From: a virus
Lineage: Duplodnaviria; Caudoviricetes
Virus record (IMG/VR): IMGVR_UViG_3300005535_000018
Coordinates: 1 to 64,000 of that record
Length of the DNA stretch: 64,000 bases
Direction: 5' to 3' (one strand)
Shown one piece after another: positions 3,947 through 38,861 of the stretch (its first letter is position 1; the number at the start of each line of letters is the position of its first letter). A program made the position numbers and the translations under genes. The notes below the pieces were generated by a model. It saw only the letters and a program-made list of their open reading frames with translations, ran no database searches and was not told the origin of the DNA.

Positions 3947-4861
3947 TTAACCTCCACGTACCTGTCGGGCGCCGCCCTCACCGAGGTCGGCGACGGTGGC
4001 CGTTGTTGACGCTTGCAACGCGGCGGTTTGCGCGTCGAGAGCGGCCTGGATTTTGGCCATGAGCGCCGCGACCTCGGGGCTGCTGGTGCCGATCGCCGCG
4101 ACTGCCGCAGCGAGCAGACGCGACGTCTCGGCCTGCGCCAGGGCCAGCTCGACGAGCCGGTTGGGGATGTTGCGGGCCGGGGCACCGCCGGGCCGGGCCG
4201 GTATGACGATCGGGTTGGCCCCCGACGCCATGCCCAGCACGGTCCAGGTCAGGTCGTGGGCTGCCTGATCGTCCATGTCGTCGTCTCCTCCTGGGGTGGC
4301 GGCGGCGCCGGCACCAACGACCGCCAGGATGTAATCGGTCGGGAACCCGGGCCCCGGGTCGGTGTGGGTCGTGCCGCCGAACGCGACCCGCAGATCGTTG
4401 TGGGTGGTGTGCCCGGGCCGGTACGCCCGCAGGTCGGCGACGCTGCACCACCGGTTCGGTATCCCCCACCGCCGCATCGACGCGGCGACGATCGGGGCCA
4501 GGTGGGCGAACATGGCCCGGCCGAACGGGTCGAGCCAGTCGCCGCGGGTCTGGCGGGCGTACCCGGCCAGCTCGACGTTGAGCCCCCGGTAGTTGCCGGG
4601 CCGGCTGCCGACGGTCCAGGCCGAGTCGCCCTCATCGACACACTGCACGACGCTGTCGCTGTCGCCGCAGAAGTGGGCCGAGACGCTGCGCCCGTCGGAA
4701 GGGTGGGCGAAGTAGGCGGCAGTCGACTCGGCCCGACCGGAATACTCAGACGCCTCCATGCTGTGCCACACGATCCACAGCGGCCGCCCGTCGGGTCGGC
4801 CGTGGGTGTAGCCCTGGGCCTGAACGAAAGGTAGGCCCGGGTGGTCGTTAGATGTCGCCAT
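3947..4861 (-). CDS. Endolysin, N-acetylmuramoyl-L-alanine amidase (Amidase_2)
   Basis: IVWHSME, SAHF, VQCVDEGDSAWTVG, LNVELAG, TTH, HTDPG zinc-amidase motifs. Confidence 0.9.
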   Translation of the reverse strand: MATSNDHPGLPFVQAQGYTHGRPDGRPLWIVWHSMEASEYSGRAESTAAYFAHPSDGRSVSAHFCGDSDSVVQCVDEGDSAWTVGSRPGNYRGLNVELAGYARQTRGDWLDPFGRAMFAHLAPIVAASMRRWGIPNRWCSVADLRAYRPGHTTHNDLRVAFGGTTHTDPGPGFPTDYILAVVGAGAAATPGGDDDMDDQAAHDLTWTVLGMASGANPIVIPARPGGAPARNIPNRLVELALAQAETSRLLAAAVAAIGTSSPEVAALMAKIQAALDAQTAALQASTTATVADLGEGGARQVRGG

Positions 4862-30372: not shown

Positions 30373-31485
30373 ATGCCCGATATCGACACCACACCCGAGG
30401 TCGAGGTGACGGCTGAGGCTGAGGCGCCGCCGGCCCCGGTCCGGTTGGCTCCGCTTCTGCACGCCATGGACCAGTACGACGGGCCCGACCAGCTCGCCGA
30501 GATGAAGGAGCTGGCCGAGTGGCTGGCCGCCTCGGCCGGGATGCTGTCTGAGCAGTACGCCGGCAAGCCGGCCAACATCGGCGTAGCGATCATGCAGGCC
30601 CGCCGGCTGCGTATCCCGATCGCGGCGGCCCTCGATGAGCTGTACTACGACGGGTCGGGCCAGGTCGCGATGAAGGCGAGCCTGATTCAGATGTTGGTGC
30701 GCCGCGCCGGCCACGCCATCATCATCCACCGCACCGACCGGCTCGAAGCGGTCATCGAGATCGAGCGGGGCGACGGCAAGCCGGGCGGCGTCGTGCGCTG
30801 GACCATCGACGAGGCCAGCGTGGCCGGGCTGCTCGAAAACGACATCTGGGCCAACTTCACCGCCGACTGTCTGTTCGCGCGGTGCATGGCCCGTCTCGCC
30901 CGCCAACACGCCGCTGACGCCACCGGCGGCGTCGTGTACGTGCCGGAGGAGCTTCAGTCCGGCTACGCCGATGGAGGCGACGCCGACGCCCAACTCACCG
31001 ACCGGACCGTCACTGAGCCGGTCGTGGCGCTGCTCGACGGGTTGGAGACGGCCGGCCACGCCGAGGTGCGGGCGAGGTGGCAGACCGCGATCGACCGGGG
31101 CCTGCTCAACGCGTACGCGGTCGACGGGCCGGGTGGGGTGGCGTTGTCGTTGGGGGCGGTGCTGCGCCGGGCCCTCGACGCGACGATGCCCCCGCCGAAG
31201 CAGCGGCCCGCCCCGCCCATCTCGGGCGCCCCGACCGGGTCGACCGCGCGGTGCGGGTTGTGCCCGGTCGACGAGGTCGTGATGACCGGCAACCACCGCG
31301 ACGGCTGCCCCCAGCACGTCGACGCCCCCGCCGCTGCGGGCGAACCCGACCCGTCCGGCATCACTTGGGTCGATGCCGAGTGGGGGCCCGTCACGCCGGC
31401 GAACACGCCCCCAGCTCGCCGCAAGCCGAAGGCCCGCCGCAAGGGCAAGGGCAAGGGTGGAGGTCGTCGTGGCGGGCGCCGCTGA
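30373..31485 (+). CDS. recT: RecT/Bet-like single-strand annealing protein
   Basis: LA.S.ML..QY.GKPANI..AI....L.I....AL; WTIDEA..AGL...W....LFARCMARLAR...D..GGVVYVPEEL. Confidence 0.75.
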   Translation: MPDIDTTPEVEVTAEAEAPPAPVRLAPLLHAMDQYDGPDQLAEMKELAEWLAASAGMLSEQYAGKPANIGVAIMQARRLRIPIAAALDELYYDGSGQVAMKASLIQMLVRRAGHAIIIHRTDRLEAVIEIERGDGKPGGVVRWTIDEASVAGLLENDIWANFTADCLFARCMARLARQHAADATGGVVYVPEELQSGYADGGDADAQLTDRTVTEPVVALLDGLETAGHAEVRARWQTAIDRGLLNAYAVDGPGGVALSLGAVLRRALDATMPPPKQRPAPPISGAPTGSTARCGLCPVDEVVMTGNHRDGCPQHVDAPAAAGEPDPSGITWVDAEWGPVTPANTPPARRKPKARRKGKGKGGGRRGGRR

Positions 31486-32437
31486 CGCCGTCCGGGCCCG
31501 GTATGTGACCGCCCTCGCCGAGGCCCACCGCGCTGAGAACATCGCCCGGGCCCGCCCGCCGCATCGGCTGTCCGTGTCGCGGCTCGGGGGCTGCACCCGG
31601 CAGGCCGGCTACGCCCTGTCCGGCACCCCGGTCAGCGACACGCCCCCGCCGGCCGAGGCCCGGGCCGCGAACCACGGCACCTGGATTCACAACGGGTTGC
31701 TGCCCCGCCTGGCCGACCAGGTCGGCGGCAAACACGAAACCGACGTCATCGCCCACGCCGCCGGGCTGGCCATCACAGGCCAGTCCGACCTGGCGGTGGT
31801 CGAGTCGGTTGACGGCGGCGAGATCGTCGACGTGAAGACCGTCAACGGGTTGGACCCGGTGCGCCGCTACGGCCCCCACGGCGAACATTGGGTGCAGGTG
31901 CTGGCCTACGCGTTGGGCGAGACGCAACGCACCGGCCGGCTCATCCGCTGGGCGGTGCTGATCTACCTCGACCGGAGCTCCGGCGAAGAGGAAGTGTTCG
32001 TGCGGGAGATCACCCCCGCGGTGCTGCTCGCAATCGTCGACCGGGTGCGGGAGATCGTGGCCGCGGCCGCCGACCCGGACACCGCCCCCCGCACCACGGC
32101 GGCGTTGCCGGGCGGGCGGCGGTGGCGCATGCGGGGGCCGGGCGCCTCGTACGAGTGCGACGAGTGTTGCTGGTTGGCGCGGTGCTGGCCCGGGGCGAAG
32201 CCGGGCGTGCGGGGGGCGCAAGCGGCGATCGTGCGGACCGACGCGGCGATCGAGGCGGCGCTGGGCGCCTACTCGGCCGCGGCCCGCGCCTCGTCCGACG
32301 CGGCCCTGGAGCAGGACTTTTGGCGGTCGGTGCTGGCCGGGTCACCGGCCGGCATCTACGGGGCGTGGCGTCTAACGTGGACAAAGAACGGATCGATCAG
32401 GGTGACCGCGGTGCGGGCCCTGGAGGAGGCGTCATGA
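31469..32437 (+). CDS. Cas4/RecE-like PD-(D/E)xK exonuclease
   Basis: SVSRLGGC.R, GTWIH, G.SD, IVDVKT, QVLAYA, CDECCW...C; paired with the RecT-like gene. Confidence 0.85.
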   Translation: MAGAADAVRARYVTALAEAHRAENIARARPPHRLSVSRLGGCTRQAGYALSGTPVSDTPPPAEARAANHGTWIHNGLLPRLADQVGGKHETDVIAHAAGLAITGQSDLAVVESVDGGEIVDVKTVNGLDPVRRYGPHGEHWVQVLAYALGETQRTGRLIRWAVLIYLDRSSGEEEVFVREITPAVLLAIVDRVREIVAAAADPDTAPRTTAALPGGRRWRMRGPGASYECDECCWLARCWPGAKPGVRGAQAAIVRTDAAIEAALGAYSAAARASSDAALEQDFWRSVLAGSPAGIYGAWRLTWTKNGSIRVTAVRALEEAS

Positions 32438-32953: not shown

Positions 32954-33122
32954 CCTCGGCCCCCGCGCGCACAGAGCAGCGGCCCCCCGCCACGACATGA
33001 GTGGACCGGGGGCCGCTGCCACGCCAACAGGGAACACAAGCAAGTAGCAACCCCGCCTTGCCTCCGTCGACGCCCGGCCAGCATAGCGAAGTGGCCCGAG
33101 CTGGCGTACCTCCACGGTGCTG

Positions 33123-33155
33123 CGTGTTGAGCGCAGTGTGGATGGCTGCTAGTCT
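33123..33155 (+). promoter_or_regulatory. Class A promoter (probably leaderless)
   Basis: CGTG-TTGAGC-N17-TAGTCT, 7 nt before GTG 33163. Confidence 0.55.
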
Positions 33156-33162
33156 CCCGCGC

Positions 33163-34053
33163 GTGATCCCTTCGCAGAGCGACCCGACCGGCATCACCGA
33201 CGCGATCGTCGACCTGTTCGCGATGCGGGCCGTCCACGACCTGCCGTTGGCCCGGTACGTGGCGGGTGAGCCGGCCGAGGCCCGCCACACGATGCGCCTG
33301 CCAGCCGGCGACGACGAGGGCGAGGGCCGCTACCGGACGTTGCTGCGGGGCGAGCCGGCCGGCTGGTGCGACGGCCTGGCCACCGCCGCCGGCTTTCCCG
33401 AGCTGGTGCCGGCTCTCGCGGCCCGGCCGATGCCGCGGGTGCTGACCTTCGTCGAGGCGGCGGGGCTGCTGCCGTCGCTGGCCGACCCGGAAGCTTCGCT
33501 GACGACGTACGGGCTGGCCAACGCCGCCCAGAAGCTGTACCCGCTCTACGCCAACAACATCAACGCCCGCGGCCGGCAGCGTTACCTGTTCGAGCTGGAC
33601 GTGAAGGCGGCCGCCGCTGAACGTCGGCTGGCCACGGCCGAGCGGCCCTCGGCCCGGCTGCGTCAGGCCGTCGCGGCGGCGAAGGCGGAGTGGTTGGCGT
33701 TGCAACGGCTGCTGCCGGTGCCGATTCGCGAGCACATGGTGGATGTGGACCTGAGCCTGCCGCCCGGCCGGGTCCGGTTGGCGCTCGACCCGGAGGTGCT
33801 GAGCACCGCGGCGCTGTGTCTTGACGGGCTGCTGATCGCCGAACGGCAGGGGTGGCTGGTCTACCTGCACCCGGGGCCGGCCGGCCGGTCGTACGTGGTG
33901 TCGGTCGCCGATCGCGACGGCGGGCGCGTGGAGCGGGAGCTGCCGCAGGAGCGGGTGCTGTCCTGGTTGCTGGGGGTCGCCGACTGGCACGGCCGGCCCG
34001 ACCTGGTCGCGTACCGGTCCGGCCTGATCTTGACCGCCAGACCCCTAAATTAG
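33163..34053 (+). CDS. Hypothetical protein
   Basis: Long ORF with GC3-rich codons; possible HTH segment (LTFVEAAGLL). Confidence 0.65.
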   Translation: MIPSQSDPTGITDAIVDLFAMRAVHDLPLARYVAGEPAEARHTMRLPAGDDEGEGRYRTLLRGEPAGWCDGLATAAGFPELVPALAARPMPRVLTFVEAAGLLPSLADPEASLTTYGLANAAQKLYPLYANNINARGRQRYLFELDVKAAAAERRLATAERPSARLRQAVAAAKAEWLALQRLLPVPIREHMVDVDLSLPPGRVRLALDPEVLSTAALCLDGLLIAERQGWLVYLHPGPAGRSYVVSVADRDGGRVERELPQERVLSWLLGVADWHGRPDLVAYRSGLILTARPLN

Positions 34054-34096
34054 CCGTTCGGCTGATGTCGATATAGCCGAATGGCTACCTCTATGG

Positions 34097-34137
34097 TTGT
34101 GTACCCTTAGGGCCCTGTGGTATCTTAGAGACACAAC
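34097..34137 (+). promoter_or_regulatory. Conserved promoter/operator repeat (class B)
   Basis: TTGTGT-N18-TATCTT-AGAGACACAAC. Confidence 0.7.
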
Positions 34138-34730
34138 TCCACAGAGGCGAGCCACTCCGAACCGGAGCAGTGCAAGGGGAAGCCCAGGCAGACGGGCACA
34201 ACCAGAAGACCCAGGGCCACGAGATACACCGGGACACCACCGCGAGATCCCGCAAAGCCGAGAAACCTGGCAGAGGAAAACGACAGCCGAAGCGAAGCCC
34301 CCCCAAGTAGCCGGAACCGAGAAAACAGCGAGATCGCCTCGAGGAACACATCGAACGAAGACGCGGGGGCCCCGCACAGGGCCCCCCAAAACCCTGCCCC
34401 TCCAAAGGGGCTGAGGCGAAGAGGGAAGCCACCAACCAGCCAACGGCTGGCAGGGCGCCAAGAGCTAAGCAGACAGGGAGCGGCCCCGGCCGCCACGGAA
34501 CGGTGCAAGTCCGTCCTGGTCAAGCGGCGATCGGGAGCCCTCGCCCAGACAGCGGCCGGCCCGGCAGGCCCGACCCCCCTCAGCCCCTCTGAAGTGGCAG
34601 GGCCACAACCCCCGAGCCCGCGAGGCAGCGGCGTCGAGCGAAAGCTCCGCCAGCGCCCGGGCCAACCCCACCCCCGACCGGGGGGCCGCCGCGGGGGCGG
34701 CCAAACGGTCACCCAAACTTCGACCCCTGA
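34133..34730 (+). ncRNA. Candidate large structured U-poor non-coding RNA / leader
   Basis: Follows a class B promoter; no credible ORF; 14 T in 34141-34500; many hairpins, a GAAA tetraloop and a T-loop-like arm. Confidence 0.55.
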
Positions 34731-34739
34731 GGAGGGGCC

Positions 34740-35312
34740 ATGTACGTCCGTAACGCAAGCTCGATCAGCGGCAAGGTCATCGTCTGGGGCTTCGTCCTCG
34801 CGGCGGCCGGCCTGAGCGCGCACGACATCGTGACGCTGTTCGAGCGCATCGGCGCCCCGGCGCCGCTGTCCTGGCTCGCGCCCGTCTTCATCGACGGCGT
34901 GACGTGGCTGGGCAAGCTCATGCGGTCGCGATCGCTGAGCAGCAAGACCAACCAGGCTGGGTTGGTCTACCTGATCCTGGGCGGCGGCGCCTCGCTCGCC
35001 GCGAACCTGGCGGCTGGTGAGTCGCTCGGCATGAAGCTTCTCGGTCTGCTAGCCGTGACCGGCTTCATCCTGGGCGAGATCGCCCTTGGCCTGATCGAGG
35101 GTCGCGAGGTCGCCTCGGCGACCAAGCCGGCCGCAACGCGCTGGCAGCCCACGCCGGAGATGAAGGCGGCCGAGGAGACCTGGCGCAAGGCCAACGGTTA
35201 CTACGGCCCGAAGAAGACGGCCCAGGACCGGAACGCGATGACCACCAAGTACCGCAAGCGGGTGCTGGCCGAGCAGGCCAAGCAGCTCGCGGCGACCGGG
35301 GCCACCCCGTGA
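34740..35312 (+). CDS. DUF2637/SpdB-like membrane protein
   Basis: Four TM segments; LSAHDI...WLAPVFIDG...SLAANLAAG; GAGGAGG RBS. Confidence 0.65.
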   Translation: MYVRNASSISGKVIVWGFVLAAAGLSAHDIVTLFERIGAPAPLSWLAPVFIDGVTWLGKLMRSRSLSSKTNQAGLVYLILGGGASLAANLAAGESLGMKLLGLLAVTGFILGEIALGLIEGREVASATKPAATRWQPTPEMKAAEETWRKANGYYGPKKTAQDRNAMTTKYRKRVLAEQAKQLAATGATP

Positions 35313-35815: not shown

Positions 35816-35884
35816 CTCCCTGTAGCGCAACGGCAGCGCACCGGCCCCCAGCCGGTGGTCCAGGTTCGAGTCCTGGCAGGGAGG
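35816..35884 (+). ncRNA. tRNA-like element 2 (5-nt anticodon loop, no CCA)
   Basis: Acceptor CTCCCTG/CAGGGAG; TA; D arm GCGC-AACGGCA-GCGC; stem CCGGC-CCCCA-GCCGG; T arm CCAGG-TTCGAGT-CCTGG. Confidence 0.8.
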
Positions 35885-35921
35885 CGACCCCGAAACCCCC
35901 CCCAACCGAAGGAGGCCCATC

Positions 35922-38809: not shown

Positions 38810-38861
38810 AAGGGCCCGCGGGCCGCTCCGACACGCTCGGGGCGGCCTGCGGGCCCTTTTT
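38810..38861 (+). terminator. Intrinsic terminator
   Basis: AAGGGCCCGCGGGCCGCTCCGA/TCGGGGCGGCCTGCGGGCCCTT stem ending in a T-run. Confidence 0.8.

Follow-up and report, generated by a model that had tools for sequence, protein, structure and literature searches.

The locus described here raises a simple question: what is the role of some 600 nt of A-rich, almost T-free DNA that lies in front of a membrane-protein gene in an uncultured phage? It is found in IMG/VR virus record IMGVR_UViG_3300005535_000018 (Duplodnaviria; Caudoviricetes), and the window analysed is the first 64 kb of this 103.5-kb record (71.6% G+C, estimated completeness 96%). An earlier note on this DNA had described a structured non-coding region and had taken it for a new large non-coding RNA (ncRNA) or an antiterminator. 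Our best reading is that the region is a new, modular and structured 5' leader RNA of an uncultured high-GC actinophage. In what follows, WIN denotes the leader of the window and L-numbers (L015, L053 and so on) denote the related loci that were fetched for comparison.

A non-coding tract between a promoter motif and a ribosome-binding site

The count of 14 T in the 360 nt from 34141 to 34500, on which attention had first been drawn to this region, proved exact on the + strand (A110, C122, G114, T14). Across the 64-kb window, 360-nt segments have a mean of 51 T (standard deviation 9) and nowhere else fewer than 25. Elsewhere in the 103.5-kb genome only one stretch, 99031–99377, has a 300-nt AT skew above 0.5, and it encodes an AKKA-repeat protein with a G+C content at third codon positions (GC3) of 0.83–0.91; 34141–34500 is the sole such stretch of the genome that is not coding. 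The N-terminus of the AKKA-repeat protein (99037–99200, beyond the window) consists of AKKA/PAKK repeats, histone-H1-like and rich in Lys, Ala and Pro.

As had been remarked, the region is unlike the coding DNA that flanks it: its G+C per codon phase is 0.61–0.73, compared with 0.88–0.97 at the third positions of the flanking genes. Neither strand has a frame with the GC3 bias typical of real genes, and a long open frame on the + strand meets its first start codon only at 34594. The region is therefore non-coding on both strands. An overlapping gene, which the earlier note had named among the findings that would speak against it, was sought by GC3 and by start codons, and no coding frame was found.

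The T-poor tract starts about 7 nt past the –10 box of a promoter motif and extends to GAGGAGG and the ATG at 34740. Seven copies of the motif, TTGTGT-N18-TATCYT-AGrGAyA, are present in the genome, always on the + strand (26416, 34097, 62271, 63082, 63738, 64334 and 66686), and they probably represent a single temporal class of promoters in this phage. In most of them the spacer has the form CTCTGGGGCACTG, possibly the site of a regulator. At least four of the other six have a sequence resembling a Shine–Dalgarno (SD) element within about 25 nt downstream, and the copy at 34097 is the only one of the seven that is followed by a long gap. From the position of the –10 box, transcription would start at about 34133. 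Because the tract runs from this promoter motif to the ribosome-binding site (RBS) of the membrane-protein gene, it is most likely the 5' leader, of about 600 nt, of a phage mRNA. On the same kind of evidence, the unit would comprise the promoter, the 607-nt leader, the membrane-protein gene, small genes, tRNA-Gly(CCC), further genes and a terminator. An intrinsic terminator at 38811–38857, the only strong one downstream, is the likely end of the unit starting at 34133; a scan found no terminator inside the 4.7-kb unit before it, and no terminator-like site on the + strand between the leader and the first gene.

Related leaders and their modules

Contigs with homologues of the membrane protein have 270–700 nt of uncalled DNA in front of the gene. 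In the nearest relative, L015, the protein is 81% identical and the last 124 nt of the leader are 92% identical; farther upstream the sequence has diverged and the same hairpins are kept. Further leaders were gathered by pattern scans of IMG/VR seeded from shared blocks, and nearly all of the related leaders have more A than T (skew 0.2–0.56). A local-similarity map divides the leader of the window into three segments: Domain 1 (34132–34338), common to L051, L053, L027 and L056; a 270-nt insert corresponding to Domain 2, the architecture of which is common to L015; and a 3' part common to L015, L053 and L027. The modules occur in other combinations elsewhere, with Domain 1 alone in L051 and L302, Domain 1 with module B in L053, and Domain 2 with module B in L015. 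The leader is thus a mosaic of modules found separately in the leaders (250–600 nt) of other phages (Table 1).

The RNA can be assigned to the + strand because only this strand accommodates the G-U pairs in P2L of L027, in hairpin Ha of L015 and in the SD stems of L016 and L019. These changes also bear on the possibility that there is no RNA element at all, and that the tract is either a low-complexity coding stretch of T-free codons or a DNA element such as an origin or an array of binding sites. T-poverty does keep the + strand frames open, the genome does hold one coding T-poor stretch, and there is a 10/10 inverted repeat between 34110–34119 and 34375–34384. However, no phase has a GC3 bias and the open frame lacks a start codon before 34594, the insertions and deletions among homologues (including one of 41 nt in a loop) are not multiples of three, no repeat array is present, and the compensatory changes are sensible only for an RNA of the + strand. 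We consider a coding or DNA-only explanation extremely unlikely.

Many of the relatives adjoin a divergently oriented gene for an 82–84-amino-acid helix-turn-helix (HTH) protein, and their promoters have a palindrome centred on GCTAGC between the –35 and –10 boxes; an integrase lies nearby in one relative. These promoters look like repressor-controlled promoters of temperate phages. The HTH protein, which is encoded divergently from Domain-1 leaders on the minus strand of the oriented loci (L051, 8795–9049; L053, 349–600; L306, 4640–4888) and has the motif ...LTxAQAAxRxG...RTPLY, is a candidate repressor of Domain-1 operons.

Members beyond these loci were not recovered by the other searches made. 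There was no blastn match to the region or to Domain 1 among 50,697 GenBank phages; pattern scans of viral and genome collections with the flanking proteins gave no relatives, nor did tblastn of these proteins against GenBank phages and plasmids. Of the checks that the earlier note had called for, the comparison with actinomycete genomes gave only six weak matches to DUF2637-type proteins and no Domain 1 in 401 sampled genomes, and the covariation analysis gave covariation in the Domain 1 of ten leaders. The 14-mer CCGGAACCGAGAAA gave only chance occurrences among the matches listed for the viral and genome collections and no new members, a scan of IMG/VR with the promoter tail TATCYTAGAGACACAAC gave only chance matches in low-GC phages, and a search with nhmmer for a further copy of Domain 1 was negative for the phage genome and for the other loci that were fetched.

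Table 1. Features of the leader and its surroundings (window coordinates; RNA features and functional assignments are predictions).
Feature	Position	Strand	Description
Inverted repeat TAGCCGTTCGGCT / AGCCGAATGGCTA	34051–34087		13-nt arms, 92% complementary; overlaps the stop codon of gene 33001–34053
Promoter motif	34097–34126	+	–35 TTGTGT 34097–34102, 18-nt spacer, –10 TATCTT 34121–34126, then AGAGACA
Non-coding 5' leader	34133–34739	+	About 607 nt; A 25%, U 5.4%; no GC3 periodicity
5'-terminal CUCCACAG	34137–34144	+	Complementary to CUGAGGAG (34727–34734) over the SD
Domain 1	34144–34340	+	P1, internal loop, P2L, P3; apical part variable
P1	34144–34150 / 34334–34340	+	GAGGCGA / UCGCCUC; covarying
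Domain 1 internal loop	34151–34154 / 34322–34333	+	GCCA opposite AAAACAGCGAGA; invariant
P2L, long-range helix	34155–34165 / 34311–34321	+	CUCCGAACCGG / CCGGAACCGAG; covarying
P3	34176–34179 / 34298–34301	+	GGGG / CCCC; by inspection only
Inter-domain hairpin	34365–34386	+	GGGGGCCC-CGCACA-GGGCCCCC; between Domains 1 and 2; no homologue available for comparison
Domain 2 multibranch	34392–34602	+	Arms 34392–34416 / 34578–34602 (CCCTG.../...CAGGG), 25 nt, 88% complementary
Hairpin in Domain 2	34436–34450	+	CCAGCC-AAC-GGCTGG
Helix in Domain 2	34489–34493 / 34524–34528	+	GCCGC / GCGGC; encloses the T-loop hairpin
T-loop-type hairpin	34500–34514	+	ACGG-UGCAAGU-CCGU; inside Domain 2
Module B	34614–34662	+	Long irregular hairpin; GCCCG 34616–34620 / CGGGC 34658–34662; apical GAGC-GAAA-GCUC 34636–34647
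Second platform hairpin	34676–34710	+	GACCG...CGGUC; invariant apical CCGCCGCGGGGGCGG
SD hairpin	34724–34737	+	CCCCU-GAGG-AGGGG; SD GAGGAGG 34729–34735; start codon 34740–34742
First operon gene	34740–35312	+	190-amino-acid DUF2637/SpdB-like membrane protein
tRNA-Gly(CCC)	35816–35885		Within the operon, 1.1 kb beyond the leader; found by Rfam (55 bits) and by ARAGORN
Intrinsic terminator	38811–38857	+	20-bp stem, then TTTTTGCGTTT; the only strong one downstream

Domain 1

The minimum free energy (MFE) predicted for a 613-nt RNA covering the leader is –252.5 kcal/mol, with z = –1.29 against 20 dinucleotide shuffles. As this energy is unexceptional, the case for structure rests on comparative evidence. 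Domain 1 was found in ten leaders of metagenomic phages or prophages (WIN, L027, L051, L053, L056 and L302–L306), with a length of 118–254 nt and in phages of 52–71% G+C. The outer helix, P1, takes the form of about 7 nt ending in CGA, paired with UCG and its continuation, and varies as UAGCCGA/UCGGCUA, GCGG-G-CGA/UCGCCGC and CAGCGA/UCGCUG. It is followed in all members by an internal loop in which an invariant GCCA faces GAGAAA(A)CCUAGA, and then by the long-range helix P2L, of the form CUCCGAnnnGG / CCnnAnCCGAG with a conserved C-C mismatch; in L305 a 41-nt insertion falls exactly within the internal loop of P2L. P2L was first found by inspection and then counted on an alignment of the ten leaders (alignment A2). 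Over 16 pairs, 87.5% of the cells of this alignment are paired, and the covariation score is 0.200, compared with 0.055 for column shuffles (0/500 reach the observed value) and no more than 0.064 after sliding of the 3' partners. Pair 31/199 of P2L occurs as CG in five leaders, AU in two, UA in two and GU in one, and pairs 14/265 and 15/264 of P1 also covary (GC, CG, AU). We regard this as good, if not formal, evidence for the pairing of Domain 1.

Further towards the apex, P3 was compared by eye and appears as GGGG/CCCC, CUGGGG/CCCCAG, CUAGGG/CCCUAG or GCCGG/CCGGC. RNAalifold on a MAFFT alignment recovered no more than P1, a local hairpin and a helix of 3 bp, owing to misalignment of the apical part. 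There is an alternative partner for the 5' strand of P2L, with which this strand can form the local hairpin CUCCG-AAC-CGGAG, and a GGAG partner is present in every member. Since the local hairpin and P2L share the same strand, two mutually exclusive folds are defined.

The genes that follow Domain 1 vary, and include those for a DUF2637-like protein, small Cys-rich proteins and a 33-amino-acid peptide, so the module is associated with the promoter or the beginning of the operon and not with the translation of one gene. In L303 a conserved hairpin with the loop CCUCACAGnCC was also seen downstream of Domain 1 (2575–2610), with equivalents in L305 and L306; its stems covary (CACCC/GGGUG vs GCCC/GGGC, and CGCUCA/UGAGCG vs GCUCACC/GGUGAGC).

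The 3' platform and the Shine–Dalgarno hairpin

The 3' part of the leader is formed by two hairpins and the SD hairpin. The first of these, module B, was recognized by eye in eight leaders (WIN, L015, L053, L035, L018, L038, L033 and L050), where the apical stem–loop changes to GAGC-UCUA-GCUC, GAGCG-UCC-CGCUC or GCAC...GUGC and inner pairs are swapped (GGC/GCC vs GCC/GGC). The second has an apical CCGCCGCGGGGGCGG that is identical in WIN, L015, L053 and L027, below which the basal helix differs in three lineages (GACCG/CGGUC, GCACCGUG/CACGGUGC and CUGAG/CUCAG). In nearly all leaders of the membrane-protein gene family a hairpin of 5–6 bp, the loop or 3' arm of which contains the SD, stands 0–2 nt before the AUG, and it covaries, with at least eight stem sequences, among them GUCCG/CGGAC, GUGGG/CCCAC, GGUCG/CGACC, GACCUC/GGGGUC, GAUCUC/GGGAUC and ACUCC/GGAGU. 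This hairpin is missing where Domain 1 precedes other genes.

A second means of covering the SD is predicted from the 5' end of the leader. The duplex between CUCCACAG and CUGAGGAG has an energy of –13.2 kcal/mol, which is reached by 1.6% of shuffles, and is also present in the MFE fold of the whole leader. Equivalent pairings between the 5' end and the SD are predicted in L053 (CUCCAG/CUGGAG, –15.2 kcal/mol, 0.4% of shuffles) and in L019 (–19.5 kcal/mol, 1.2%).

Proposed control in cis and its alternatives

We propose, with moderate confidence, that the leader controls expression of the downstream operon in cis by occlusion of the RBS. The input and outcome that we infer for it are as follows. 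Transcription would begin at about 34133, at one of the seven promoter copies, and pass through the leader into the membrane-protein gene, the small genes and tRNA-Gly, to end at the terminator at 38811–38857. The leader would be a string of RNA modules, each folding on its own: Domain 1, which begins some 10 nt from the 5' end, would form a long hairpin-like structure in which two covarying helices surround strictly conserved internal loops; Domain 2 would be a closed multibranch with a T-loop hairpin; and the 3' platform would bring its two hairpins and the SD hairpin to the start codon. The RBS would be kept shut by the local hairpin and by pairing with the 5'-terminal CUCC element, and with the RBS closed, translation of the membrane protein would be low or conditional. 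The conserved loops of the upstream modules may then be docking sites for a factor that sets this level or stabilizes the RNA.

Several points weigh against this proposal. Transcription itself, its start site and the ends of the transcript are deduced from DNA motifs, and the MFE of the whole leader is not significantly below that of shuffled sequences (z = –1.29). The covariation in Domain 1 comes from ten sequences in about seven lineages, with a shuffle control that ignores relatedness, and Domain 2 rests on two or three sequences with no statistic. The pairing of the 5' end with the SD was found in 3/5 leaders and is absent from L302 and L016. Finally, Domain 1 also precedes unrelated first genes that have no SD hairpin (L051, L302, L303–L306), and in the window a link between Domain 1 and the SD platform, at least 270 nt away, is speculative.

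The main rival is a stable RNA acting in trans, of the type produced from the Pleft region of Cluster A mycobacteriophages. In L5, D29 and StarStuff the early lytic promoter is separated from the first gene by a non-coding region of about 500 nt. The RNA made from this region is stable and the most abundant one in the infection; it is processed to species of 100–500 nt with a common 5' end, the expression of genes downstream drops by more than 90%, and the region is toxic (PMC5712189). Similar highly transcribed non-coding regions are present in Rhodococcus phage WC1 (PMC10986025). By this account the leader would itself be the main product, an abundant, stable and possibly processed ncRNA that acts on the host or the phage, and transcription would for the most part stop or decay ahead of the first gene. 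The leader has the layout seen in L5, D29, StarStuff (PMC5712189) and WC1 (PMC10986025): an actinophage with some 500–600 nt of non-coding DNA between a phage promoter and the first gene and no conserved open reading frame. Here about 607 nt lie between the promoter (34097–34126) and the ATG (34740). In relatives of the window the promoter looks repressor-controlled, with a small HTH gene in divergent orientation and a palindromic operator, GCTAGC, inside the promoter; Domain 1, moreover, travels with the promoter and not with a particular gene. Like the leader of the window, that of L5 (L338; L5 51083–51672, minus strand) has T-loop-type hairpins, near its 5' end (GCCGG-UGAAAAU-CCGGC) and near its 3' end (CGGG-UUCGAUU-CCCG).

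On the other hand, there is no detectable homology between the two: nhmmer with the Domain 1 profile gave no match in the L5 leader at E values up to 100, the AT skew of the L5 leader is only 0.12 compared with 0.65 here, and the stoperator sites of L5 were not seen in our leader. On the + strand no terminator-like site separates the leader from the first gene, and the conservation of the SD hairpin is an argument that this RNA serves as an mRNA too. High abundance, stability, processing and toxicity are features established for the leader of L5. An RNA that acts mainly in trans is the strongest competitor, and we judge it clearly less probable than control in cis; the two may overlap, since a leader with a role in cis may at the same time build up as a stable RNA, as the Pleft RNAs of L5 and D29 do. 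We regard Pleft as the closest known phenomenon, by functional analogy and not by membership of one family. That long, highly expressed non-coding leaders follow the early promoters of actinophages is known from RNA-seq of L5, D29, StarStuff and WC1, and their structure and function are unexplained. What is new here is a set of leaders, unrelated to these in sequence, with modules supported by covariation (Domain 1, the T-loop hairpins and the SD hairpin), which provide helices and loops to mutate.

Another possibility is that Domain 1 is a cis-acting RNA for processive antitermination, which would modify RNA polymerase just after promoter escape, alone or with a protein. In the lambda N leader, nutL is combined with an RNase III-sensitive structure that occludes the RBS of N, and the put RNAs of HK022 act in cis. 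The likeness is that of a structured, cis-acting RNA just past a phage promoter and a first gene with its RBS in secondary structure. In keeping with this, Domain 1 lies about 10 nt from the predicted start, heads operons with differing first genes next to repressor-type promoters, and has invariant internal-loop nucleotides as would be expected of a protein- or polymerase-binding site. However, our leader is much longer and modular, and no similarity in sequence or structure to lambda nut or HK022 put was found, a comparison that was not put to a test, and none to the known antitermination RNAs in Rfam. The scan gave no terminator inside the 4.7-kb unit before 38811–38857, so nothing in the window obviously needs antitermination, and the other six promoter copies have no such element. 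We consider the antitermination part of the earlier suggestion improbable.

It is about equally unlikely that one or more of the modules are riboswitch aptamers for a host metabolite or second messenger. The covarying helices of Domain 1 around strictly conserved loops, its variable peripheral helices and its position in the 5'-untranslated region would fit such a function, the two exclusive pairings of CUCCG (in a local hairpin with CGGAG or in P2L) would fit a switch, and the SD hairpin with the anti-SD elements resembles an expression platform. Against this, the downstream genes hint at no ligand, the modules are distant from the SD and are combined differently from leader to leader, and no known riboswitch model matches. 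A cobalamin riboswitch, suggested by the hairpin GGUGNNAGUCC, was tried and rejected: RF00174 gave no match in the region at E values up to 10 or in the related leaders at E values up to 1, and as a positive control the same model found 3–7 copies in each of four high-GC actinomycete genomes.

Domain 1 might also be a new class of regulatory RNA that heads the main rightward operon of uncultured temperate actinophages, in which the invariant loops (GCCA opposite GAGAAACCUAGA) and the two exclusive pairings form a switch that binds a small molecule, RNA polymerase or a phage protein and so sets the level of lytic gene expression. On this view the leader as a whole would consist of such sensors in tandem. 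We put this forward tentatively, as slightly more doubtful than a stable RNA of the Pleft type. If Domain 1 does prove to be a sensor or an element that binds polymerase or another protein, phages of high-GC bacteria would have a regulatory RNA of a new class, and could serve as a portable part for the control of expression in the engineering of Streptomyces or mycobacteria.

Domain 2 and the T-loop-type hairpin

The hairpins picked out in the earlier note are all present, including GCCCC-TCCAAA-GGGGC, GGGGGCCC/GGGCCCCC and GAGC-GAAA-GCTC, and several of them belong to modules that recur with compensated changes. In L015, Domain 2 has the same topology in other sequence, with a closing helix AACCCUGGGGC/GCCCCAGGGUU, an enclosing helix CAGCGA/UCGCUG and the hairpin CCGG-UGAGAGU-CCGG. 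The leader of L020, which is cut at its 5' end, retains only the T-loop core (GCCGAUC/GAUCGGC and GCGG-UGAAAGU-CCGC). The hairpin at 34500–34514 in the window had been taken for the T-arm of a mini tRNA-like unit. With the loop UGCAAGU it follows the T-loop rule (a 7-nt loop with U1, A5 and closure by G-C), and by this rule it is classed as a T-loop-type hairpin, as are five of six related hairpins (L015, L020, L018, L033 and L038), with the loops UGAGAGU, UGAAAGU, UGGUAUU, UUCGAGU and UUCGACU; the 8-nt loop of the sixth, in L050, falls outside the rule. The stems differ (ACGG/CCGU, CCGG/CCGG, GCGG/CCGC, GGCCGG/CCGGCC and CCCAG/CUGGG). The T-arm part of the description thus holds, as a recurring hairpin with changed stems, and the tRNA-like part does not, as ARAGORN found no acceptor or anticodon arms and no tRNA or tmRNA in the leader of the window or in those of 14 related loci. 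In its loop (U-G-C-A-A-G-U, with U1, A5 and G-C closure) the hairpin resembles the T-loop modules of tRNA, RNase P RNA, T-box leaders and some riboswitches; unlike a tRNA, tmRNA or tRNA fragment, it is isolated, with no acceptor or anticodon arms.

The comparison with GOLLD and ROOL deserves similar treatment. A single very large structured ncRNA of the GOLLD, ROOL or OLE type would account for a structured region of some 600 nt with many hairpins in a phage, with a tRNA gene 1.1 kb downstream. Yet cmscan of the whole window with Rfam 15 at the gathering score gave only the tRNA-Gly (35816–35884), and the region itself at E values up to 10 gave only chance matches of the microRNA type, below 19 bits; likewise no family was found in 14 related loci, or in the leaders of eight loci at E values up to 1. 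The leader is moreover a mosaic that abuts a promoter and an RBS and not a free-standing conserved RNA, and there is no conserved 600-nt fold because the relatives carry the modules separately (L051 and L302; L053; L015). It is therefore highly unlikely that the region belongs with GOLLD and ROOL. The idea of a new large ncRNA survives in so far as the region is non-coding, is read on the + strand and matches no Rfam family.

Base composition of the leader

In the MFE fold of the leader, 50% of the unpaired bases are A and 3% are U, and 87% of the paired bases are G or C. An excess of A over U is normal for structured RNA in high-GC genomes: the RNase P RNAs and cobalamin riboswitches of four high-GC actinomycetes have 16–21% A, 10–14% U and an AT skew of 0.08–0.35. 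As the skew of 0.65 in the leader is well beyond this range, its U-poverty is only partly explained in this way. The composition follows from the architecture, with helices of almost pure G-C and junctions rich in A and C, and U-tracts would be excluded because a chain of GC hairpins with a U-tract would form terminators; the same phage has a canonical U-tract terminator at 38811–38857. The relatives of lower G+C content stay A-rich with more U (L056 has 32% A and 18% U), which fits GC pressure on the helices while A-rich junctions are held.

It had been suggested that U-depletion might protect the RNA from U-specific nucleases. This finds no support, as mycobacterial RNase E cleaves 5' of cytidines in C-rich single strands (PMC10641625) and the leader is C-rich; avoidance of RNase E as the cause of U-poverty was rejected on these grounds. 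We propose as a rule for high-GC genomes that a strong skew of A over U without GC3 periodicity flags structured RNA, and that the same skew with GC3 bias flags proteins rich in Lys, Ala and Pro.

Flanking genes and other features

Pfam gave no direct match for the 190-amino-acid membrane protein itself, and a literature search on DUF2637 yielded nothing useful. It has 33 homologues, one of which carries PF10935, and in the atlas it lies next to clusters of DUF2637 and SpdB proteins from Actinomycetota and phages (structural TM 0.67). In L302, after the small genes downstream of the Domain-1 leader, a sub-threshold tRNA-like match to the mascRNA/menRNA model (4375–4418, 26.7 bits, E 0.2) could be part of a tRNA gene.

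Two inverted repeats were noted around the promoter. The perfect 10-nt repeat GGGCCCTGTG / CACAGGGCCC, which joins the promoter spacer (34110–34119) with the inter-domain hairpin (34375–34384), may be due to chance or may be a pair of operator half-sites. The repeat at 34051–34087 may be an end-of-gene hairpin or a protein-binding site. Its core CAGCCGTTCGG recurs 100–250 nt upstream of the leaders in L035, L038, L050, L051 and L028. The motif CAGCCGTTCGGyC (34051–34063), which forms one arm of the repeat in the window and was seen in L027 as well, lies at this distance upstream of leader promoters in several unrelated contigs. Farther upstream in the window (30373–32437), a RecT-like annealing protein (phrog_561) and, after it, a Cas4-type exonuclease (phrog_1706) are encoded, and together these form a phage recombination module.

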